Shown here one piece after another: positions 24,381 through 32,468 of a DNA stretch of 52,985 nucleotides. The notes beneath the pieces were generated by a model. It worked only from the letters and a program-made list of their open reading frames with translations. It had not been told where the DNA came from and did not search any database. Position 1 is the stretch's first letter; every line of letters begins with the position of its first letter. Origin of the DNA: Magnetococcales bacterium (GTDB lineage: Bacteria > Pseudomonadota > Magnetococcia > Magnetococcales > JADGAP01); assembly GCA_015231965.1 (NCBI GenBank), contig JADGAP010000002.1:1-52985 (forward strand), written 5' to 3'. Made by a program: the position numbers and the translations under genes.

Positions 24381-25652
24381 ATGGATCCTTTTCATTTCAA
24401 ACTGCCGGCGAATTACAGTTTCAAGCAAGGCGATCTGTACGACTTTGACGCCGCCATCTCGTGGTACGACTGGACCGCGACCTCTCAACCCGTGGACATT
24501 GATTTGAGACCTTGCACCCGCGCCAATTACAACGCCTTGTCGCTGCTTGTTCTGTATGTTTGGGAGTTGCACGCCAGGGGGTGTCGCATCGCATTCAAGA
24601 CCGATGAACGGGGGGACGAAAACGCTTCCCGCGCGTGGAAGATGATGGGGGCCAAGGGGTGGTGGCACGTTTTGCAAAACAGTTCCAACAATTTCAGGGC
24701 AAGCCAATACAAACCCCTGCTCGCCATCCGGGACCGGGGGGATTTTTCCAAGGCCTTATCCAAGGTGGAGGCGTTTGTCTCCGAATTCAATGTGGAATAC
24801 GAGAACACCCTGCGCTATGTGTTGTCGGAGTTGCTTTATAACACGCTAGAGCATGGCGTGGCGTACCGAAACATCGATGGACGTTCGACCCGCATTCCGT
24901 CCCTGATTCAATTCACATGGTATCGTAGACGAAACGAGCTGCAGTTTTTGATCGCCGATCTGGGCGTGGGCATCAAAAATCATCTGGAGCAGAATAAATC
25001 CTACCAGCCATTCGCCAGCGACGCCGAGGCCATCCTGTTTGCGTTGCGTCCCCAGGTTTCGGGAACCTTTGGGCGGAACGATCCCTACCGCAACAAGGAC
25101 AATGCGGGGGTCGGACTGTACTTATCCAGTCAAATTGTTCGCCGACTGCGCGCCGATCTGTACATCATCTCGGGCAACGGATTGGTGCATGTCTCTCCCA
25201 CGGATGTCACCAGTCAATCCCTTCGCCATGCGTGGCCGGGAACGTTTGTCCTGTTTGATATTCATCTCTCGCCCCATCTGGATATCAACTTCCACCAAAT
25301 GATGAGCGAATTACGGGAATCGGCCCGGCGGGAAGTCCATAACGGGCATTCCGCCGAGGAGGAGAATATTTTCTATTTCAGTCTGGAAAATTATTTTGGC
25401 CGTCACGCCGAGGACAAGGCATCCGCCATTCTCCATCGCGACCGCTCCCTGATTCCCGCCGTCGACGCGGGAAAGACCTTGCGCCTGGATTTTGACAACG
25501 TGCAAGCGGCTCCCCACAGCTTTCTCAGCGCCCTGCTGGCCACGCCGGTCAAACGTTTGGGCATGGCGGCGTATAAGAAGATCAAAATTTTGAACGCCAC
25601 GCCCGAAATTCGGGAAACGATCGACTACATCCTCGACGAAAACACCTCGTAA
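24381..25652 (+). CDS. Orphan GHKL (RsbW/HATPase_c-like) ATPase fused to a C-terminal STAS-like (DUF4325-type) domain
   Basis: N-box SELLYNTLEHG, G1 box IADLGVGI, G2-like NAGVGLYLS. C-terminal TLRLDFDNVQAAPHSFLSALLATPVKRLGMAAYKKIKILNATPEIRETIDYIL has the DUF4325/STAS-like pattern (v.lDF.gV....sF...L). Visibly lower G+C than its neighbours. Confidence 0.6.
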   Translation: MDPFHFKLPANYSFKQGDLYDFDAAISWYDWTATSQPVDIDLRPCTRANYNALSLLVLYVWELHARGCRIAFKTDERGDENASRAWKMMGAKGWWHVLQNSSNNFRASQYKPLLAIRDRGDFSKALSKVEAFVSEFNVEYENTLRYVLSELLYNTLEHGVAYRNIDGRSTRIPSLIQFTWYRRRNELQFLIADLGVGIKNHLEQNKSYQPFASDAEAILFALRPQVSGTFGRNDPYRNKDNAGVGLYLSSQIVRRLRADLYIISGNGLVHVSPTDVTSQSLRHAWPGTFVLFDIHLSPHLDINFHQMMSELRESARREVHNGHSAEEENIFYFSLENYFGRHAEDKASAILHRDRSLIPAVDAGKTLRLDFDNVQAAPHSFLSALLATPVKRLGMAAYKKIKILNATPEIRETIDYILDENTS

Positions 25653-25731: not shown

Positions 25732-27042
25732 TCAAAAGGTAAACACGTCCTTCTCCTTGGGGGCGTGGCAGTGGGTGGCGGACTGGAGTTCCCGCAGCAG
25801 GGATTGGGCGTGGGCCAGTTTGGCGTCGATGGCGTCGTCGCTCTGGTCGGGGTCGTGGTGGTGGAGGAAGAGATTTTTCACCCCGGCGTCGTGGGCCAGG
25901 CTGACCACTTGACTGACGTTGGAGTGGCCCCAGCCCATTTTGGGGCGGTATTCGTGGTCGGCGTAGGTGGCGTCGGTGATCAGCACGTCGGTCCCCTGGA
26001 CGAAGTGGATCAACTTGTTGCGGTAGGATTCGCTGTAGTGGGGGGTTTCCGGGGGATAGAGTTCGTTGTCGGTGACATAGCACAGGGAGCGGTTGCGGTA
26101 CTCCAGGCGATAGCCCAGGCAGGCCCCGGGATGGCTCAACAGCAGGGTGCGCAGGGTGATTTCCGGGGTCAAAGCGAAGCTCCCCTCCCGCAGGTCGCGA
26201 AAATAGACCCTGGCTCCGAAGGCTTTGATCTTCACCGGAAAATAGGGGCCGTCCATCTGGTTGGAGATCAGCTCCCGCATGGTGGTGTCGCCGTGGTAGG
26301 CCCCGCAAATTTCAAATTCGTTGCCCTGCATGTAGAGGGGAACGAAAAACGGCAGGCCGTTGATGTGGTCCCAATGGGGGTGGGAGATGAGAATCCGCGC
26401 CTCGATGGGCAACTTTTTTCGGCGCAGCAGATCATCGGCCAGGGGTTTGATGCCGGTGCCGCCATCGAAAATGAAAAAATCCCCCTTGGGAAATTGGGCG
26501 GTGATGCAATTGGTGAAGCCGCCATACTTGAGGGTTTGGGGGCCGCTCATCGGCAGGGTGCCCCGCACCCCCCAAAATTGCACGTCGATGGCATCGACGA
26601 GAATGCGCCCGAGATCCGCGATAAACCGCTCTGCCTCGATGGGCTTGGTGAAATAGCCGTCGGCCCCCAGGGATTGAGCCCGCTTGCGGTCGAATTCGTA
26701 GGCCTTGGCCGAGACGAAAATGACCACCCGGTCGTGCAACTCCGGACGGCTGCGAATCAGGCGACACAGCTCCATGCCGTCCATTTCGGGCATCATCACA
26801 TCCAGCAAAATCACCTCCGGATGCTCCTCCTCGATGCGGACCATGGCCTTGCGGCTGTCGTTCTCCAGGGTGACGATGGCCCCTTCCGCTGTCAGGATGG
26901 TCTGCATCACCTGGGTGTAAAAGGGATCGTCGTCCACCACCAGGATGCGGCGGCGCTGCAGCGGGGCGTTTTCCGAGGGGGTGGCGTGAGGCACGGCGGG
27001 CTCCTGACGGAGGGTTTGAGACGGGTGAACCATTCGTTGCAT
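25732..27042 (-). CDS. Response regulator receiver fused to an MBL-fold metallo-hydrolase domain
   Basis: REC domain: RILVVDDDPF...VILLDVMMPEMDGMELC...FVSAKAY...GADGYFTKP. MBL domain: FIFDGGTG...ILISHPHWDHINGLPFF (HxHxDH) ...HHHDP. Confidence 0.85.
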   Translation of the reverse strand: MQRMVHPSQTLRQEPAVPHATPSENAPLQRRRILVVDDDPFYTQVMQTILTAEGAIVTLENDSRKAMVRIEEEHPEVILLDVMMPEMDGMELCRLIRSRPELHDRVVIFVSAKAYEFDRKRAQSLGADGYFTKPIEAERFIADLGRILVDAIDVQFWGVRGTLPMSGPQTLKYGGFTNCITAQFPKGDFFIFDGGTGIKPLADDLLRRKKLPIEARILISHPHWDHINGLPFFVPLYMQGNEFEICGAYHGDTTMRELISNQMDGPYFPVKIKAFGARVYFRDLREGSFALTPEITLRTLLLSHPGACLGYRLEYRNRSLCYVTDNELYPPETPHYSESYRNKLIHFVQGTDVLITDATYADHEYRPKMGWGHSNVSQVVSLAHDAGVKNLFLHHHDPDQSDDAIDAKLAHAQSLLRELQSATHCHAPKEKDVFTF

Positions 27043-27119: not shown

Positions 27120-27818
27120 CTACCCGCGAGAGCCAAAAATGGCACTGCCCACCCGCACCAGGGTCGCCCCTTCCTCGAGGGCTATTTCGTAATCCTGACT
27201 CATTCCCATGGAAAGCTCCTCCAGGGGCATCCCGGTGGTCTCCCGCAACGCTTCGGCCAACCGGCGCAAGGCGCGAAAATAGGGACGCGCCTCTTCCGCC
27301 GTCGGGGTGAAGGGGGGAATGGCCATCAAGCCTCGCAGCCGCAGTCCCGGCAACCCGGCGATGTGGAGCGCCGCCGCCGCCGCCTCCTCCGGGGAAAAAC
27401 CGGCCTTTTGCGGTTCGTTCCCGATGTTGATCTGCATCAGCACCGGCAGCGGCGTCGCGAGGAACTCCAGGCGACGGCGGGAAAGCTCCTCGGCCAGGGG
27501 CAGGGCGTCGAGACTCTCCACCATGTCGAACAGCCGCGCCGCCTCCTTGGCCTTGTTGCGCTGCAAGGGGCCGATCAAATGCCATCCCGCCCCCGAACCT
27601 CCCGTCCCGGCGATTTGGGAAATTTTCTCCCGGGCCTCCTGGACGTAATTTTCGCCGAACAGGGTCTGACCCGCCGCCAACGCCTCTCCCACCGCCGCCG
27701 CCGGTTGGTGCTTGGAAACCGCCACCAGCCGGACCGAGGCGACCTCCCGCCCCGCCCGCTCGCAGGCCGCCGCCATCCGCCGCCGCACCATGGCCAGTTG
27801 ATCCGCAATCAGGCTCAT
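27120..27818 (-). CDS. yggS: YggS-family pyridoxal-phosphate homeostasis protein
   Basis: VRLVAVSKHQP...FGENYVQEA...WHLIGPLQRNKAK...LMQINIG.EPQKAGF...LRGLMAIPP...LSMGMSQDYEIALEEGATLVRVGSAIFG. ATG 27818 is preceded by GGAAGGTGA. Confidence 0.9.
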   Translation of the reverse strand: MSLIADQLAMVRRRMAAACERAGREVASVRLVAVSKHQPAAAVGEALAAGQTLFGENYVQEAREKISQIAGTGGSGAGWHLIGPLQRNKAKEAARLFDMVESLDALPLAEELSRRRLEFLATPLPVLMQINIGNEPQKAGFSPEEAAAAALHIAGLPGLRLRGLMAIPPFTPTAEEARPYFRALRRLAEALRETTGMPLEELSMGMSQDYEIALEEGATLVRVGSAIFGSRG

Positions 27819-27910
27819 CCTATCACCTTCCCTGTGCCATTTCCTGGCTTTTTGACGCCGCCTCAAGGGGGGATTCTTTTCATTTCAGGCTTTGATAATG
27901 GATCCGAGCA

Positions 27911-27924
27911 TGATAAATTTATCA
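27911..27924. promoter_or_regulatory. Perfect 14-bp palindrome TGATAAATTTATCA; candidate operator of the downstream two-gene cassette
   Basis: The sequence is its own reverse complement. It lies 3 nt upstream of the AAAGGAGGA ribosome-binding site of the 27943 gene and just downstream of a GATAAT -10-like hexamer (27894-27899). Confidence 0.5.
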
Positions 27925-27942
27925 CGAAAAGGAGGACATTGC

Positions 27943-28698
27943 ATGGAACGGGATCTGCCAGAGGAGGCGCGGTTCATCATTCGGGGTCCGTACACGCCGG
28001 ACAACGTCCCGATGGATTTGCTCGCCCAGTTCATGCTGCAATTGGCCAAGCTGACTGGAGAGAAAAAACACGTCCATTTCGTTGGTCTTGAAGAAGGCAG
28101 TTTGATGATCAAGGAGCGCATCGAACCTCCTGCCAAGCTCAAGGTCAAGGAGCGGTTCGCCCTTTTAGATAATTGCGCCAAAGGGTTGGGGAACGACCCG
28201 GTTTATGACGAGACCGTGGCGTTGCTTGAAAAACACGGCACCACCGGAGAGCTTTGTTATGGGGATTCGCCCCAGGTCATTCCCTTTCCCGGTCCTCAAT
28301 ATCTTGCCGCCCGGGACGTTCTTACCGTCACCCAAGAGGGAAGTCTGGATGGCGTCGTTGTCACCCTCGGCAACCGGAGCGCTGCGGAGAATAAGCCGAC
28401 AACCGTCACCTTGAAGGATGGCCCCAGAATTTACTCTTGCACCGCCTGTAGAACAGTGGCTCGGGATTTGGCCAAGCACTTTGATGGCCCCGCGTTGCGA
28501 GTTTACGGTCAAGGAACCTGGAAACGCCTGTCTGACAAGGGGTGGGTGGTGGATGAGTTTCAAATCGAACGATTTGATGTCCTCGTTGATCAACCGCTTG
28601 AAGAAATTCTTCGCGAGATGGGCAAGCACTTCCAAGGATGGCGCGCACTCGAGAATCCGTGGGAGGAGTTGCGGCGCATCCGGTATGGAGACGATTGA
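27943..28698 (+). CDS. Hypothetical 251-aa protein, no family recognised; upstream partner of a PIN-like nuclease
   Basis: Strong AAAGGAGGA Shine-Dalgarno sequence 6 nt upstream of ATG 27943. The stop TGA is immediately followed by the ATG of the next gene (GAT TGA ATG). AT-richer than its surroundings. I can match no motif. Confidence 0.6.
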   Translation: MERDLPEEARFIIRGPYTPDNVPMDLLAQFMLQLAKLTGEKKHVHFVGLEEGSLMIKERIEPPAKLKVKERFALLDNCAKGLGNDPVYDETVALLEKHGTTGELCYGDSPQVIPFPGPQYLAARDVLTVTQEGSLDGVVVTLGNRSAAENKPTTVTLKDGPRIYSCTACRTVARDLAKHFDGPALRVYGQGTWKRLSDKGWVVDEFQIERFDVLVDQPLEEILREMGKHFQGWRALENPWEELRRIRYGDD

Positions 28699-29235
28699 AT
28701 GGCGATCCTCAGTGAGTCCACGGCGGTCATCGACTCATCATTATTATTGTTTCTGGCTGATCCGATGTGTTCACCACCGTTGGATCCTGATACAAACCAT
28801 CCCATCGAGCGAGCGCGTGATCGGATTGAACACCTAATTCGTGAATTGGGCAATCGCCGCACCGTGCTTTTGATTCCAGCGCCGGTTCTTGCCGAATCCC
28901 TGGTTCGAGCCGAAGCGGGTTTTATGCCGATGCTCAATCATGCGCGAAATGTTCGCATCGTTCCTTTTGATTACTTGGCGGCGGAAGAGTGCGCATCGTT
29001 GCTGCGCAGACAATTGGAAAACAAAGAGAATGCATCCACGATTCCCCAGAGTAGGCAATGCGCCAAGGTTGATTTGCAAATCGTCGCCATCGCCCGCACC
29101 CGCCACGCGGAAGTTTTATACACCCAGGACGCTGGGATGCGAAAGCTCGCCACCCATTACGGACTGGATGTTAAATCCTTGCAAGACATCGCCCCCCCTC
29201 AAATCCAACTCCCTCTTCCCCTGGAAAAGGAATAA
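28699..29235 (+). CDS. PIN-like domain nuclease (putative toxin or effector)
   Basis: Acidic-residue pattern typical of PIN: AVIDSS (Asp), IPAPVLAES (Glu), KVDLQIVAIAR (Asp), LYTQDAG (Asp), within an alternating beta-alpha pattern. 178 aa. Confidence 0.6.
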   Translation: MAILSESTAVIDSSLLLFLADPMCSPPLDPDTNHPIERARDRIEHLIRELGNRRTVLLIPAPVLAESLVRAEAGFMPMLNHARNVRIVPFDYLAAEECASLLRRQLENKENASTIPQSRQCAKVDLQIVAIARTRHAEVLYTQDAGMRKLATHYGLDVKSLQDIAPPQIQLPLPLEKE

Positions 29236-29280: not shown

Positions 29281-29308
29281 AAAAAAAACGGGCGGATTGC
29301 TCCGCCCG
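29281..29308 (-). terminator. Rho-independent terminator downstream of flgE (minus strand)
   Basis: On the minus strand: CGGGCGG-AGCAAT-CCGCCCG followed by T8. A second GC hairpin, CACCCGCCC-GGGTCAG-GGGCGGGTG, lies at 29338-29362. Confidence 0.75.
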
Positions 29309-29367: not shown

Positions 29368-30870
29368 TCACCGCTTCATGTTGACCAACTCTTCGAGCAT
29401 GCCGTCCACCACCGAGACCACCCGGGAGTTGGCCTGGAAGGAGCGTTGAATGGAGATCATGCGGACGAATTCGTCGGACATGTCCACGTTGGACTGTTCC
29501 AGCGAGTTGGAGTTGATGTTGCCGAAACCCGCCGCCTGAGGGGTGCCCATGATCCGGCTGCCGGACTTGAAGGTTTCGACGAACAGGTTGGAGCCGATCT
29601 GGTCCAGGCCGCTTTCGTTGGGGAAGGAGGCGAGGATCAACTGATAGAGGGGCCGCACCTGACCGTTGTCGAAGGAGCCGATGATCTTGCCGTCGGGGTT
29701 GACCGACAATCTCTCCAGAAAGCCCGCCGGGAAACCGTCCTGGGAAATTTTGAGGGTGGCGAAGCCGGCGGCGAACTGCACCGTGCCGTCCTGACCGGTG
29801 AGCCCCACGTCATCCTTCAGGCTGGAGTCGGTGAACTCCAGGTAGCTGGCGGAGCTGGAGTCGGTGTCGTAGGTGCGGTAGTCGTTGGAGGAGTCGTACA
29901 AATGGGTGGAGCCCAAGGTGGGGCCCATGGCGCCGCCGAAGTTGAAGATGACCTCTTGCGGGGCCACGCCGTTGTCCCAGTTGAAGGTCATGGGCACGGA
30001 GCCTTCGTTCTGCAACAAACCGGCGGAGGTGAAGGTCATGACGCCGTGGGTGTAGACCGCGCCGGCCAACTGGGTGCGCACGTGGGTGCCGAAGTCGGTG
30101 GTTCCATCCAGGTCGGTGTCGTCCACGGCGGTCAGGTTGTTCACGCCGTGTTTATTGGCCGCGCCTTCCAGGTCCGTTGAATCCACCACGGCGTGCCACT
30201 CCCAGGTGTTGGAGGCGGTCTTGACGAACTGGACCTCGATGTTGTGACCGGCGCCCACCGAGTCGTAAACCCGCAAGGAGGTGGCGAAGTTGTAGCTGTC
30301 GGGATCGGTGGGGTCGTAGGTGGCGGTGGGGATGGAGGCCTCGGCGTCCAGGTTGACCGACACGTTCACCGTGCTGGTGGGCTGGGAGGGGACCTTGGTG
30401 CCCGACAGGTCGATATCGGTCATGGCACCGCTGATGGGGTCGCCCTCGGTGTCCAGGGTCAACCCTTGCACCACAAAACCGGTGTTGGTCACCAGCTTGC
30501 CGTCCAGGGCGCGTTTGAAGTCGCCGGCGCGGGTGTAGTAGGTGGAGACCTGATTGTTGCCGGCGTAGTCCTTGACGATGAAGAAGCCGGTGCCGTCGAT
30601 GGCCACGTCGGTGACGGTGGAGGTGAACTCGAAGGCCCCCTGCTTGAAGCTTTGGGCCACCGAACCCACCCGCATGCCGTTGCCCACCTGATTGGAGCCC
30701 TGGGCGGCGTTGACGCCGATGGTCTGGGAGAGGATGTCCTCGAAGGTGACGGAGCTTCCCTTGTAGCCCACGGTATTGGCGTTGGAAAGGTTGTTGCCGA
30801 TGACGCTCATGGCATTGCCCATGTTGGCGAGAGCGCTGGAACCGGCGAACATTGCATTCATGATGGACAT
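29368..30870 (-). CDS. flgE: Flagellar hook protein FlgE, paralogue 1
   Basis: N-terminal MSIMNAMFAGSSALANMGNAMSVIGNNLSNANTVGYKG and C-terminal LEQSNVDMSDEFVRMISIQRSFQANSRVVSVVDGMLEELVNM are the flagellar rod/hook conserved termini. The 500-aa size and the flgD gene upstream fit FlgE. Confidence 0.88.
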   Translation of the reverse strand: MSIMNAMFAGSSALANMGNAMSVIGNNLSNANTVGYKGSSVTFEDILSQTIGVNAAQGSNQVGNGMRVGSVAQSFKQGAFEFTSTVTDVAIDGTGFFIVKDYAGNNQVSTYYTRAGDFKRALDGKLVTNTGFVVQGLTLDTEGDPISGAMTDIDLSGTKVPSQPTSTVNVSVNLDAEASIPTATYDPTDPDSYNFATSLRVYDSVGAGHNIEVQFVKTASNTWEWHAVVDSTDLEGAANKHGVNNLTAVDDTDLDGTTDFGTHVRTQLAGAVYTHGVMTFTSAGLLQNEGSVPMTFNWDNGVAPQEVIFNFGGAMGPTLGSTHLYDSSNDYRTYDTDSSSASYLEFTDSSLKDDVGLTGQDGTVQFAAGFATLKISQDGFPAGFLERLSVNPDGKIIGSFDNGQVRPLYQLILASFPNESGLDQIGSNLFVETFKSGSRIMGTPQAAGFGNINSNSLEQSNVDMSDEFVRMISIQRSFQANSRVVSVVDGMLEELVNMKR

Positions 30871-30935: not shown

Positions 30936-32468
30936 CTACTTCTTCATGTCCCGCACTACCTGGGTCATTTCGTCCGTGATTGTGATAATCCGGGCGTTGG
31001 CCTGATAGGTGCGCTGCAGGGCGATCATGCGGGTGAACTCCTCGGCCATGTCCACGTTGGAGTGTTCGATGGCTCCGCCGGTCATCTTGCCCGCGCCGCC
31101 TTGTCCGGCCACCGCGACGGTGCGGGTTCCGGAGTAGGGGGTGGCGACGAAGAGATTGTTGCCCTTGGCTTCCAACCCCAGGGGATTGGTGAAGAGGGCC
31201 ACCGGGAGCTGGTACAGGGAGCGGGAGGTGCCATTGCTGAAGTGGCCGGTCATGACGCCCGCGGTATTCATGGTGATGCGATCCAACCGCCCCTCGGGAA
31301 AGCCGTCCTGGCTCACTTCCAGGGTGGAGTATCCCGCCGCGTACTGCACCGTTCCCAGTCCGCCGGTGGTTCCCGTGTCATCTGCGGCGGTGGCGGCGGC
31401 GAAGGTCATGTAGGTGGAGGAGGTGGGAGTCAGATCGAACCCGGTGTAGTCGTTGGTGGAGTCGGCGGTGTGGGCCTGGCCCAGGGCGTCGCCCATGGCG
31501 TCGCCGAAGTCGAACAACACTTCCTGGGGGGTGACGGCGTTGTTCCAGTTGAAGGTGATGGGGGTGGAGCCCTCGGTTTTCAACTGGCCCGACGGGGTGA
31601 AGGTCAACAGCCCGGTGGTGTATTCGCTGGAGATGGCGGCCCGCACATGGGTTCCCTCGTCCAGGATTCCGTCCAGGTCGGTGTCGTCCACGGCGGTGAG
31701 ATTGCCGATGCCGCGCTGGGTGGAGTCCAGATCGGAGCTGGGGAGGGCCACGTGCCACTCCCACTGCAAGCTGCCAATTTTGCGGAACTGCACTTCCACG
31801 TCGTGTCCCTCGCCCTGATTGTCGTAAATCCGCGCCCCGGTGGAGAAGTTGTAGGTTTGCGAATTGTTGGGATCGTAGCTGGTTCCGGAGAGATCCTCGT
31901 CCTCGGCGTCCAGGTTGACCGACATGGTGACCGTGGTGGTGGGCTGAGCCAGGGAGAGGATGCGGGAGGGGGAGATGTCCACGTCGGTGAGGGCGCTGCT
32001 CACCTGGGCTCCGGTGTTGTCCAGTTCCCACCCTTGCAGCACCATGCCTCGCTTGGTGGAGAGCTTGATGGTCTCCAGGTCGGCGTCGCCGACGGTGGAT
32101 TCGGTCAATTTCACGAAGTCGCCGGCGCGGGTGTAGTAGGTTTTGGTGGAGTTTTCGTTGCTGTAGTCCTTGACGATGAAATAGCCCTGGCCGTTGATGG
32201 CCATGTCGGAGGTGTTGTCGGTCATCTGGAACGAGCCTTGGCGGCTGTTGCGGCTCACGCCGTCGAGGTGGACGCCGTTGCCCATTTGGGTGATGCCGGA
32301 GGCTTGGGTGGTTCCGATATTTTGCGAGAGGATATCGGCGAAGTTGGCAATGGCCCCCTTGAAACCGGTGGTGGAGGCGTTGGACAAATTATTGCCAATA
32401 ACGCTCATGGCCTGGGCCATGCTGTTCAACCCGCTGGCTCCCGTGTACATGGCGTGGATGATGGACAT
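30936..32468 (-). CDS. flgE: Flagellar hook protein FlgE, paralogue 2
   Basis: MSIIHAMYTGASGLNSMAQAMSVIGNNLSNASTTGFKG ... IEHSNVDMAEEFTRMIALQRTYQANARIITITDEMTQVV. Collinear with paralogue 1 through the central domains (NLTAVDDTDLDG..., ...TFNWNNAVTPQEVLFDFG). Confidence 0.88.
   Translation of the reverse strand: MSIIHAMYTGASGLNSMAQAMSVIGNNLSNASTTGFKGAIANFADILSQNIGTTQASGITQMGNGVHLDGVSRNSRQGSFQMTDNTSDMAINGQGYFIVKDYSNENSTKTYYTRAGDFVKLTESTVGDADLETIKLSTKRGMVLQGWELDNTGAQVSSALTDVDISPSRILSLAQPTTTVTMSVNLDAEDEDLSGTSYDPNNSQTYNFSTGARIYDNQGEGHDVEVQFRKIGSLQWEWHVALPSSDLDSTQRGIGNLTAVDDTDLDGILDEGTHVRAAISSEYTTGLLTFTPSGQLKTEGSTPITFNWNNAVTPQEVLFDFGDAMGDALGQAHTADSTNDYTGFDLTPTSSTYMTFAAATAADDTGTTGGLGTVQYAAGYSTLEVSQDGFPEGRLDRITMNTAGVMTGHFSNGTSRSLYQLPVALFTNPLGLEAKGNNLFVATPYSGTRTVAVAGQGGAGKMTGGAIEHSNVDMAEEFTRMIALQRTYQANARIITITDEMTQVVRDMKK

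Follow-up and report, generated by a model that had tools for sequence, protein, structure and literature searches.

A two-gene cassette that lies between yggS and flgE in a 52,985-nucleotide (nt) stretch of a Magnetococcales bacterium genome (contig JADGAP010000002.1 of GenBank assembly GCA_015231965.1; the whole stretch is hereafter called the window) is read as a copy of a widespread mobile gene pair acting as a toxin-antitoxin-like or abortive-infection module, a reading to which roughly even chances are given. The first gene, gene A (27943–28698, plus strand), was taken from the listing of open reading frames (ORFs) and encodes a protein of 251 amino acids with an isoelectric point of 5.4 that belongs to a large family without a name (phrog_19868); the second, gene B (28699–29235, plus strand), encodes a predicted PIN-domain nuclease of 178 amino acids (phrog_21691). 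In the favoured mechanism, B would be the effector nuclease, most likely a ribonuclease (RNase), and A, translated first and coupled to B, would be its dedicated partner, of which the C-terminal tail would bind B and keep it in check. An OB-fold in A would bind single-stranded nucleic acid, either as a sensor or as an element directing B to its substrate; in the sensor version, invader DNA or RNA, or the loss of A supply, would free a toxic B, and the elements that carry the pair would gain through the exclusion of superinfecting phages, through addiction, or through both.

The pairing of A with B is observed far beyond the window. In a species scan with the B alignment, for which one genome per species was used, relatives of B were found in at least 353 of 185,579 species, mostly Alphaproteobacteria, together with Beta-, Gamma- and Zetaproteobacteria, Nitrospira, Acidobacteriota, Gemmatimonadota, Planctomycetota, Latescibacterota, Binataceae, Bacteroidia and one metagenome-assembled genome of the Streptomycetaceae. 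Among 80 genome loci examined as species representatives from these species, 78 have an A homologue directly before B and in the same orientation; an exception, L016, is truncated by the contig end, and the only complete locus with B but without an A homologue (L074) is described further below. The same arrangement is found in all 32 viral loci from IMG/VR, and a reverse search from A homologues gave a B-sized PIN gene downstream at every locus. In each of the 87 loci measured, the A stop and the B start lie −14 to +5 nt apart, an overlap of 1 nt being the commonest. No third conserved gene emerged when 613 neighbour ORFs were clustered, in which only an IS1595 transposase recurs. The A-B pair is essentially obligate.

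In the window, the same coupling can be read from the junction TGAATG (28696–28701, plus strand), where the TGA stop of A occupies 28696–28698 and the ATG of B follows at 28699; moreover, a GGAG within the 3' end of A (28687–28690, plus strand) lies 8 nt ahead of this ATG. Gene A is preceded by a Shine-Dalgarno sequence, AAAGGAGGA (27928–27936, plus strand), which was read from the sequence and ends 6 nt before the ATG at 27943. Both genes of the window stand in one reading frame with a single TGA between them, an arrangement that is taken as incidental because most other loci overlap out of frame. Downstream, no convincing plus-strand terminator for A-B was found; the only terminator there is the intrinsic one on the minus strand (29289–29308), with a stem from 29308 to 29289 and a T run, which serves flgE and lies outside the cassette. 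A preliminary description of the window, made from the sequence, had already reported the start of B right after the A stop and the want of a terminator belonging to the cassette, and all of its sequence features were confirmed, with some coordinates slightly corrected. The order with the partner first, together with the tight coupling, is the layout of antitoxin-toxin operons.

Gene B is, as judged from sequence, a VapC-like PIN-domain nuclease with an intact D-E-D-D active site, and its product would act as a metal-dependent nuclease, most likely an RNase. The PIN profile PF01850 matches the B of the window with 21.3 bits (E = 4.4e-4), just under the cut-off of 23.6, and is matched at E ≤ 0.01 by 52 of 59 B homologues assembled from genomic, phage and plasmid sequences, the best of them at E = 1.5e-8; two relatives (P0006 and P0007) bear a precomputed PF01850 match, and three homologues match PIN_4 better. 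The acidic tetrad consists of D12 (28732–28734), E66 (28894–28896), D125 (29071–29073) and D144 (29128–29130), all on the plus strand. The four residues are invariant among five close B sequences, and in the set of 59 sequences all keep E66, D125 and D144 and at least 90% keep D12; the PIN-like acidic pattern that the preliminary description had proposed is therefore conserved in homologues. An insertion after the first Asp, proposed there as unusually long and helical, is also supported as to its length: D12 and E66 are separated by 54 residues, about 15–20 more than the Pfam profile expects, and the Pfam alignment on B begins at residue 31, which corresponds to profile position 4. A PDB sequence search found no significant relative of B among solved structures, the closest sequence being the PIN+KH protein MJ1533 at a non-significant E of 0.19, and in PADLOC-DB v2.0 the only match to B was PDC-M11A, with E = 0.008 over 48 residues.

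The partner is the more unusual component. Searches with A in Pfam, NCBIfam and PADLOC-DB v2.0 (including its PD-T4, PD-T7 and PD-lambda systems) gave no match, and thus none to a known antitoxin or housekeeping family, and a sequence-profile search of the PDB returned 0 matches. Similarly, the scanning of 73 A relatives with Pfam gave no consistent match. The absence of RHH, AbrB, HTH and Phd signatures, which the preliminary description had noted for A, extends to these relatives in Pfam and agrees with the structural comparison, and no recognisable double-stranded-DNA-binding domain was found in A by either approach. A does match phrog_19868, for which no function is annotated, at E = 9e-28. 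A profile search with A collected 75 clusters, and an exhaustive search at E ≤ 1e-3 gave a family of 1506 clusters at 50% identity, nearly all of them stand-alone proteins of 240–260 amino acids; no A-B fusion proteins occur among the top 150 representatives of the family.

In the preliminary description no motif could be recognised in A, a statement that is superseded by structure prediction: on an AlphaFold model built from a 73-sequence alignment, with a predicted local distance difference test score (pLDDT) of 90.6, A is confidently predicted to be an unnamed three-part protein in which an OB-fold lies between a ferredoxin-like domain and a helical tail. The N-terminal ferredoxin-like alpha/beta domain (residues 1–125; 27943–28317, plus strand) was modelled separately, with a pLDDT of 91 and a predicted template-modelling score of 0.82, and contains the invariant residues G39, G52, S53 and R71. 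Its Foldseek matches are weak (E of about 1e-2) and comprise the C-terminal domain of aIF2-alpha, Pop5 and designed ferredoxin folds; since these are only generic ferredoxin-like matches, no function is given to the domain. The OB-fold (residues 127–213; 28321–28581, plus strand), identified from the model and by Foldseek, has the five strands of the expected barrel and a helix inserted between the third and the fourth; its order in DSSP is strand 127–142, strand 153–159, strand 162–168, helix 170–177, strand 185–196 and strand 200–213, with a pLDDT above 90. In the PDB, Foldseek matched it to Stn1, SSB, RPA, ExoVII and the anticodon-binding OB domains of Lys- and Asp-tRNA synthetases with E values of 1.5e-4 to 5e-3 and a probability of about 1.0. 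The invariant basic and aromatic residues R186, W193, R195 and W201 map to strands beta4 and beta5 of this predicted OB-fold and would suit its binding of single-stranded nucleic acid. The C-terminal helical tail (residues 219–248; 28597–28686, plus strand) has a pLDDT of 82–83, lower than that of the two domains, contains the conserved residues W233 and R247, and is the candidate segment for the binding of B.

An OB-fold beside a nuclease can alternatively be read as a two-subunit enzyme, in which A would be an obligatory subunit for substrate binding or targeting, B alone would be inactive or harmless, and both proteins would be needed for anti-phage activity or for other nucleic-acid processing. 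This alternative is regarded as a possible explanation of somewhat low probability. It agrees with the use of OB-folds as substrate-binding modules in many nucleases (in keeping with the ExoVII, RecJ and SSB-like matches), with the PIN+KH architecture of MJ1533 as the nearest, if non-significant, PDB sequence to B, with the preference of three homologues for PIN_4, and with a two-way strict co-occurrence that suits an obligate heteromer. Such an arrangement is known from single-chain PIN+TRAM/KH proteins and from the DS-5 system, the partner of which is needed for defence and is no antitoxin (PMC13092281). What speaks against a two-subunit enzyme is that partner-first order with tight overlap is the classic antitoxin-toxin layout, that B is broken while A is intact in two loci and the reverse is never seen, and that the B of L074 pairs with a 68-amino-acid protein without an OB-fold; the OB-fold is therefore not indispensable for B.

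The favoured reading, i.e., a B that is restrained by the C-terminal tail of A, is suggested by the gene layout, by the B-only nonsense mutations and by the small partner in L074, all of which are hints rather than proof. One in-frame TGA, differently placed in the two loci, interrupts B in L019 and in L023 next to an intact A, and a broken A was seen in no locus. At L074 (5789–6489), an ORF of 68 amino acids overlaps the ATG of B, and its C-terminal sequence, DDPYAELMRERG, is similar to the conserved end of A (ENPWEELRRIRYG in the window); the likeness is to the tail of A only, and on this basis the ORF may represent a minimal partner.

Several points weigh against this reading and keep it from being firmer. 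The tail likeness of the L074 ORF has an E of about 1e-3 when taken as a single targeted test and an E of 3.8, which is not significant, when all ORFs are considered; both nonsense mutations come from metagenome-assembled genomes and could be assembly errors. A is three times the size of usual VapB antitoxins and is without their DNA-binding domains, and the DS-5 partner, required for defence and no antitoxin, is a validated precedent for a different division of labour (PMC13092281). Since DNA, too, can be a substrate of PIN domains, B may act on it rather than on RNA. Neither A nor B matches any PADLOC v2 model significantly, and the genes around the pair are for the most part ordinary metabolic ones.

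The pair shares several features with VapBC systems. Both have a PIN effector with four acidic residues and a partner gene that comes first and overlaps or abuts the effector gene; both occur as small mobile cassettes with a patchy distribution on plasmids, prophages and chromosomes; and in both the partner may bind through a C-terminal tail. The pair differs from VapBC in that A has about 250 amino acids as against 70–90 for the antitoxin, that the place of an AbrB, RHH, Phd or HTH DNA-binding domain is taken in A by a ferredoxin-like domain and an OB-fold, and that no conserved operator could be found. B, for its part, has about 15–20 residues inserted after the first Asp and narrowly misses the Pfam PIN threshold.

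The question of an operator arises from a perfect 14-bp palindrome, TGATAAATTTATCA (27911–27924, palindromic and hence without strand), which the preliminary description had placed between a GATAAT hexamer and the ribosome-binding site and had interpreted as an autoregulatory operator. Its presence is confirmed; its role as an autoregulatory operator finds no support in the comparison of loci, since no conserved palindrome was found in the 120 nt scanned upstream of A in about 85 other loci, where arms of at least 7 occur in three distinct loci, about the chance rate. The string TTGATA/GATAAT is located at 27892–27899, and a consensus scan of the plus strand gives a promoter-like site at 27892–27919, composed of TTGATA, a 16-nt spacer and an extended −10 element (TG-a-TAAATT) that the palindrome overlaps. 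This site, the only promoter-like one, scores 9 of 12 consensus matches plus the TG before the −10 and is a consensus match only, shuffles of the region yielding 1.2 such sites. The palindrome is of modest significance: perfect palindromes of at least 14 bp number 6 in the window, compared with 4.9 ± 2.5 in block shuffles. TGATAAATTTATCA is the only AT-rich one among them, no other copy of it exists in the window at up to 3 mismatches, and a rough calculation gives a probability of about 0.01 that any particular upstream region of 120 nt contains a 7+7 palindrome with zero loop. The half-sites resemble halves of a Fur box, but the spacing is 7-0-7 and not 7-1-7.

A canonical type II operon of the VapBC kind, in which A would be a DNA-binding antitoxin that represses its own promoter at this palindrome, alone or with B, appears unlikely. 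It would account for a perfect palindrome that lies over a promoter-like −10 and just upstream of the ribosome-binding site, and for a gene order and coupling like those of VapBC with a PIN domain in B. It is difficult to reconcile with an A in which Pfam and structure reveal no AbrB, RHH, Phd or HTH domain, with the lack of conservation just described, and with the fact that palindromes of such length are not over-represented in the window. Moreover, in prophages and insertion sequence (IS) elements the pair sits 20–180 nt behind cI or a transposase on the same strand, and has therefore probably no operator of its own there. The palindrome of the window may still serve in local regulation, whether through a host factor or through A-B.

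The pair is mobile, being found in prophages, on plasmids and in IS1595 transposons. In the Pseudomonas phages Ostro and Pacha_bin_1, for example, it follows cI directly, in the same orientation and within a lysogeny region that ends with the integrase, the pair of Ostro being WXB47649/WXB47648; for 10 IMG/VR contigs tested, the gene upstream of the pair encodes an HTH_3+Peptidase_S24 repressor in five and HTH_3 only in two. From its position behind cI on the same strand, the pair is probably expressed in the lysogen. The lambda rexAB genes, downstream of cI, are the textbook case of lysogen-expressed exclusion genes beside the repressor and encode a sensor and an ion channel (RexAB), and BstA, a single KilA-N-type protein, is likewise encoded next to the repressor locus. 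The phage-borne A-B pair resembles these systems in position only, directly downstream of cI and on the same strand, and their proteins are unrelated to A and B.

In about 10 of the 80 genome loci, an IS1595-family transposase (Zn_ribbon_IS1595 + DDE_Tnp_IS1595) is encoded 20–180 nt upstream of the pair on the same strand. Terminal inverted repeats of 24–40 nt enclose the transposase, A and B in L022 (4067–6913), L055 (4238–6749), L059 (4083–6752) and L063 (4166–6844), giving units of 2.5–2.85 kb, and three of these four have the inverted-repeat motif ATTATATACTTGAC in common. Exact 8-bp target duplications, CGAAATTC and GAAAAATA, flank the units in L022 and L055, respectively, and 7 of 8 positions agree in L059. 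Such inverted repeats and flanking duplications make the pair a passenger cargo of elements that truly transposed, and these transposed carriers are found in Nitrospira, Acidobacteria, Actinobacteria and Betaproteobacteria. Between the B stop and the right inverted repeat of the units lie about 170–330 nt of non-coding DNA. In the literature on IS1595 passenger genes, no paper on the A-B pair is apparent from titles and abstracts.

Other settings of the pair are more varied. Plasmid copies adjoin XerD, a resolvase and IS3 and IS5 transposases, and the loci L124–L127, on JGI metagenome contigs, lie in an apparent defence island with an Mrr-like nuclease, a DprA-like protein, DUF4145, an MmeI-type IIG enzyme and an HsdR/N6_Mtase-like protein. 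A KAP NTPase is encoded near the pair in L123, and scattered PADLOC neighbours, as individual cases, include restriction-modification systems, DarG, AbiE, AbiT and Sir2. A mobile or defence-related context, which the preliminary description had suggested looking for, is present in prophages, IS1595 elements, plasmids and some defence islands.

This close association with mobile elements could also mean that the pair has an accessory role for its carrier, acting on single-stranded DNA or RNA intermediates in transposition or replication or in the control of lysogeny, or, in a weaker form, that it is a host housekeeping pair for RNA processing. The carriage of the pair as IS1595 cargo, its place in prophage regulatory regions and the frequent combination of an OB-fold with a nuclease in DNA metabolism would fit such a role, which is nonetheless considered very improbable. 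The pair occurs with three unrelated kinds of mobile elements and also alone in chromosomes, as in the window, and is therefore not specific to the mechanism of one element; to our knowledge, most IS1595 elements are without the A-B pair, which likewise counts against an accessory role. The patchy spread (at least 353 of 185,579 species) and the foreign composition of the cassette argue against a housekeeping role.

As to composition, the cassette in the window is a horizontally acquired, compositionally foreign two-gene unit. Its guanine-cytosine (GC) content of 0.538 compares with a window mean of 0.628 (standard deviation 0.034 in windows of 1331 bp), in line with the AT-richness pointed out in the preliminary description, and makes it the lowest-GC 1.3 kb of the 53-kb window, in the bottom 0.2% of 1331-bp windows. 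The GC content at third codon positions is 0.63 in A and 0.56 in B as against 0.82 in yggS and 0.90 in flgE, a gap of 0.2–0.3 between the cassette and its neighbours. No IS remnants were detected at the window cassette, i.e., no transposase and no meaningful flanking inverted or direct repeats, so that the transposase, terminal inverted repeats and 8-bp duplications that mark an IS1595 passenger are found in the related loci and not at this copy. Cassette-free close relatives of the host were sought, and the yggS relatives obtained from metagenomes, at most 55% identical, are too distant for comparison; a look-up of the exact A sequence gave no record.

Another of the described systems close to the pair is DS-5, found with DefensePredictor, in which a PIN ribonuclease is combined with a DUF5830/AcrIF4-like protein, and for which anti-phage activity was validated and shown to require the partner (PMC13092281). 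Like the A-B pair, DS-5 consists of two genes, one for a PIN effector and one for a partner of larger size outside the classical antitoxins; it differs in that A has no match to DUF5830, which Pfam also failed to detect in the A relatives, or to any other Pfam entry, the comparison being one of domain content. A further lead comes from DUF6575, which Vassallo et al. (2022, PMC9519451) list among domains with a newly recognised part in phage defence. When the full A model was compared with viral structures by Foldseek, a phage protein annotated as containing DUF6575 came out best (E = 1e-8 over 254 columns), but the TM-scores are low (0.24–0.32) and no Pfam match to DUF6575 occurs in A or its 73 relatives; DUF6575 is treated as a lead only, because there is no sequence-level link to A. 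YacL-type PIN-TRAM proteins and the PIN+KH protein MJ1533 likewise combine a PIN nuclease with a small nucleic-acid-binding domain. In these, the two parts are fused in a single chain encoded by conserved genes of a housekeeping type, whereas A and B are separate, translationally coupled proteins of a mobile pair. Two further candidates were rejected as relatives: DARNA, a HEPN protein, is unrelated, and so are the exclusion genes of phage Fc02, which are overlapping ORFs of small size.

Conflict modules with a PIN effector are a known class; what is new here is the architecture of the partner, the large obligate family, the carriage by IS1595 and the position beside cI. These features of A-B are uncatalogued in Pfam 2025, NCBIfam 2026, PADLOC 2023, PHROGs (where both proteins are of 'unknown function') and the open literature. 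A more specific proposal, offered tentatively, is that the pair forms a new widespread abortive-infection family in which the OB-fold protein would sense the single-stranded nucleic acid of an invader, or a phage protein bound to such nucleic acid, and thereby free the PIN RNase, with a spread by IS1595, plasmids and the immunity regions of temperate phages over ten or more phyla or classes of bacteria. No toxin-antitoxin effectors are more numerous than PIN nucleases, whose validation in phage defence is only beginning. For the question of how PIN effectors get switched on, a compact obligate pair of about 1500 clusters, with a partner that brings an OB-fold instead of a transcription-factor domain, offers a test case. 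IS1595, for its part, gives conflict modules an uncomplicated means of passing from one phylum to another. Showing the ligand of A and the control of B would bring a further kind of regulation into the field of PIN toxins and probably also a new entry into defence catalogues.

The genes on both sides of the cassette are on the minus strand. On the left lies yggS (27120–27818), which encodes a YggS-type pyridoxal phosphate protein (PF01168); on the right are two flgE paralogues in tandem, flgE itself (29368–30870; 500 amino acids) and a second copy (30936–32468; 510 amino acids), each with FlgE_D2 and the rod N- and C-terminal domains. A second low-GC patch (about 0.55) lies at 24381–25652 on the plus strand and encodes, possibly as a further acquired gene, a 423-amino-acid protein in which a histidine-kinase-like ATPase domain is combined with a STAS-like DUF4325 domain at the C-terminus. 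The patch is flanked by a GT2 glycosyltransferase gene and by a gene at 25732–27042 (minus strand) for a 436-amino-acid fusion of a response-regulator receiver and a metallo-beta-lactamase-fold domain (Lactamase_B_2).

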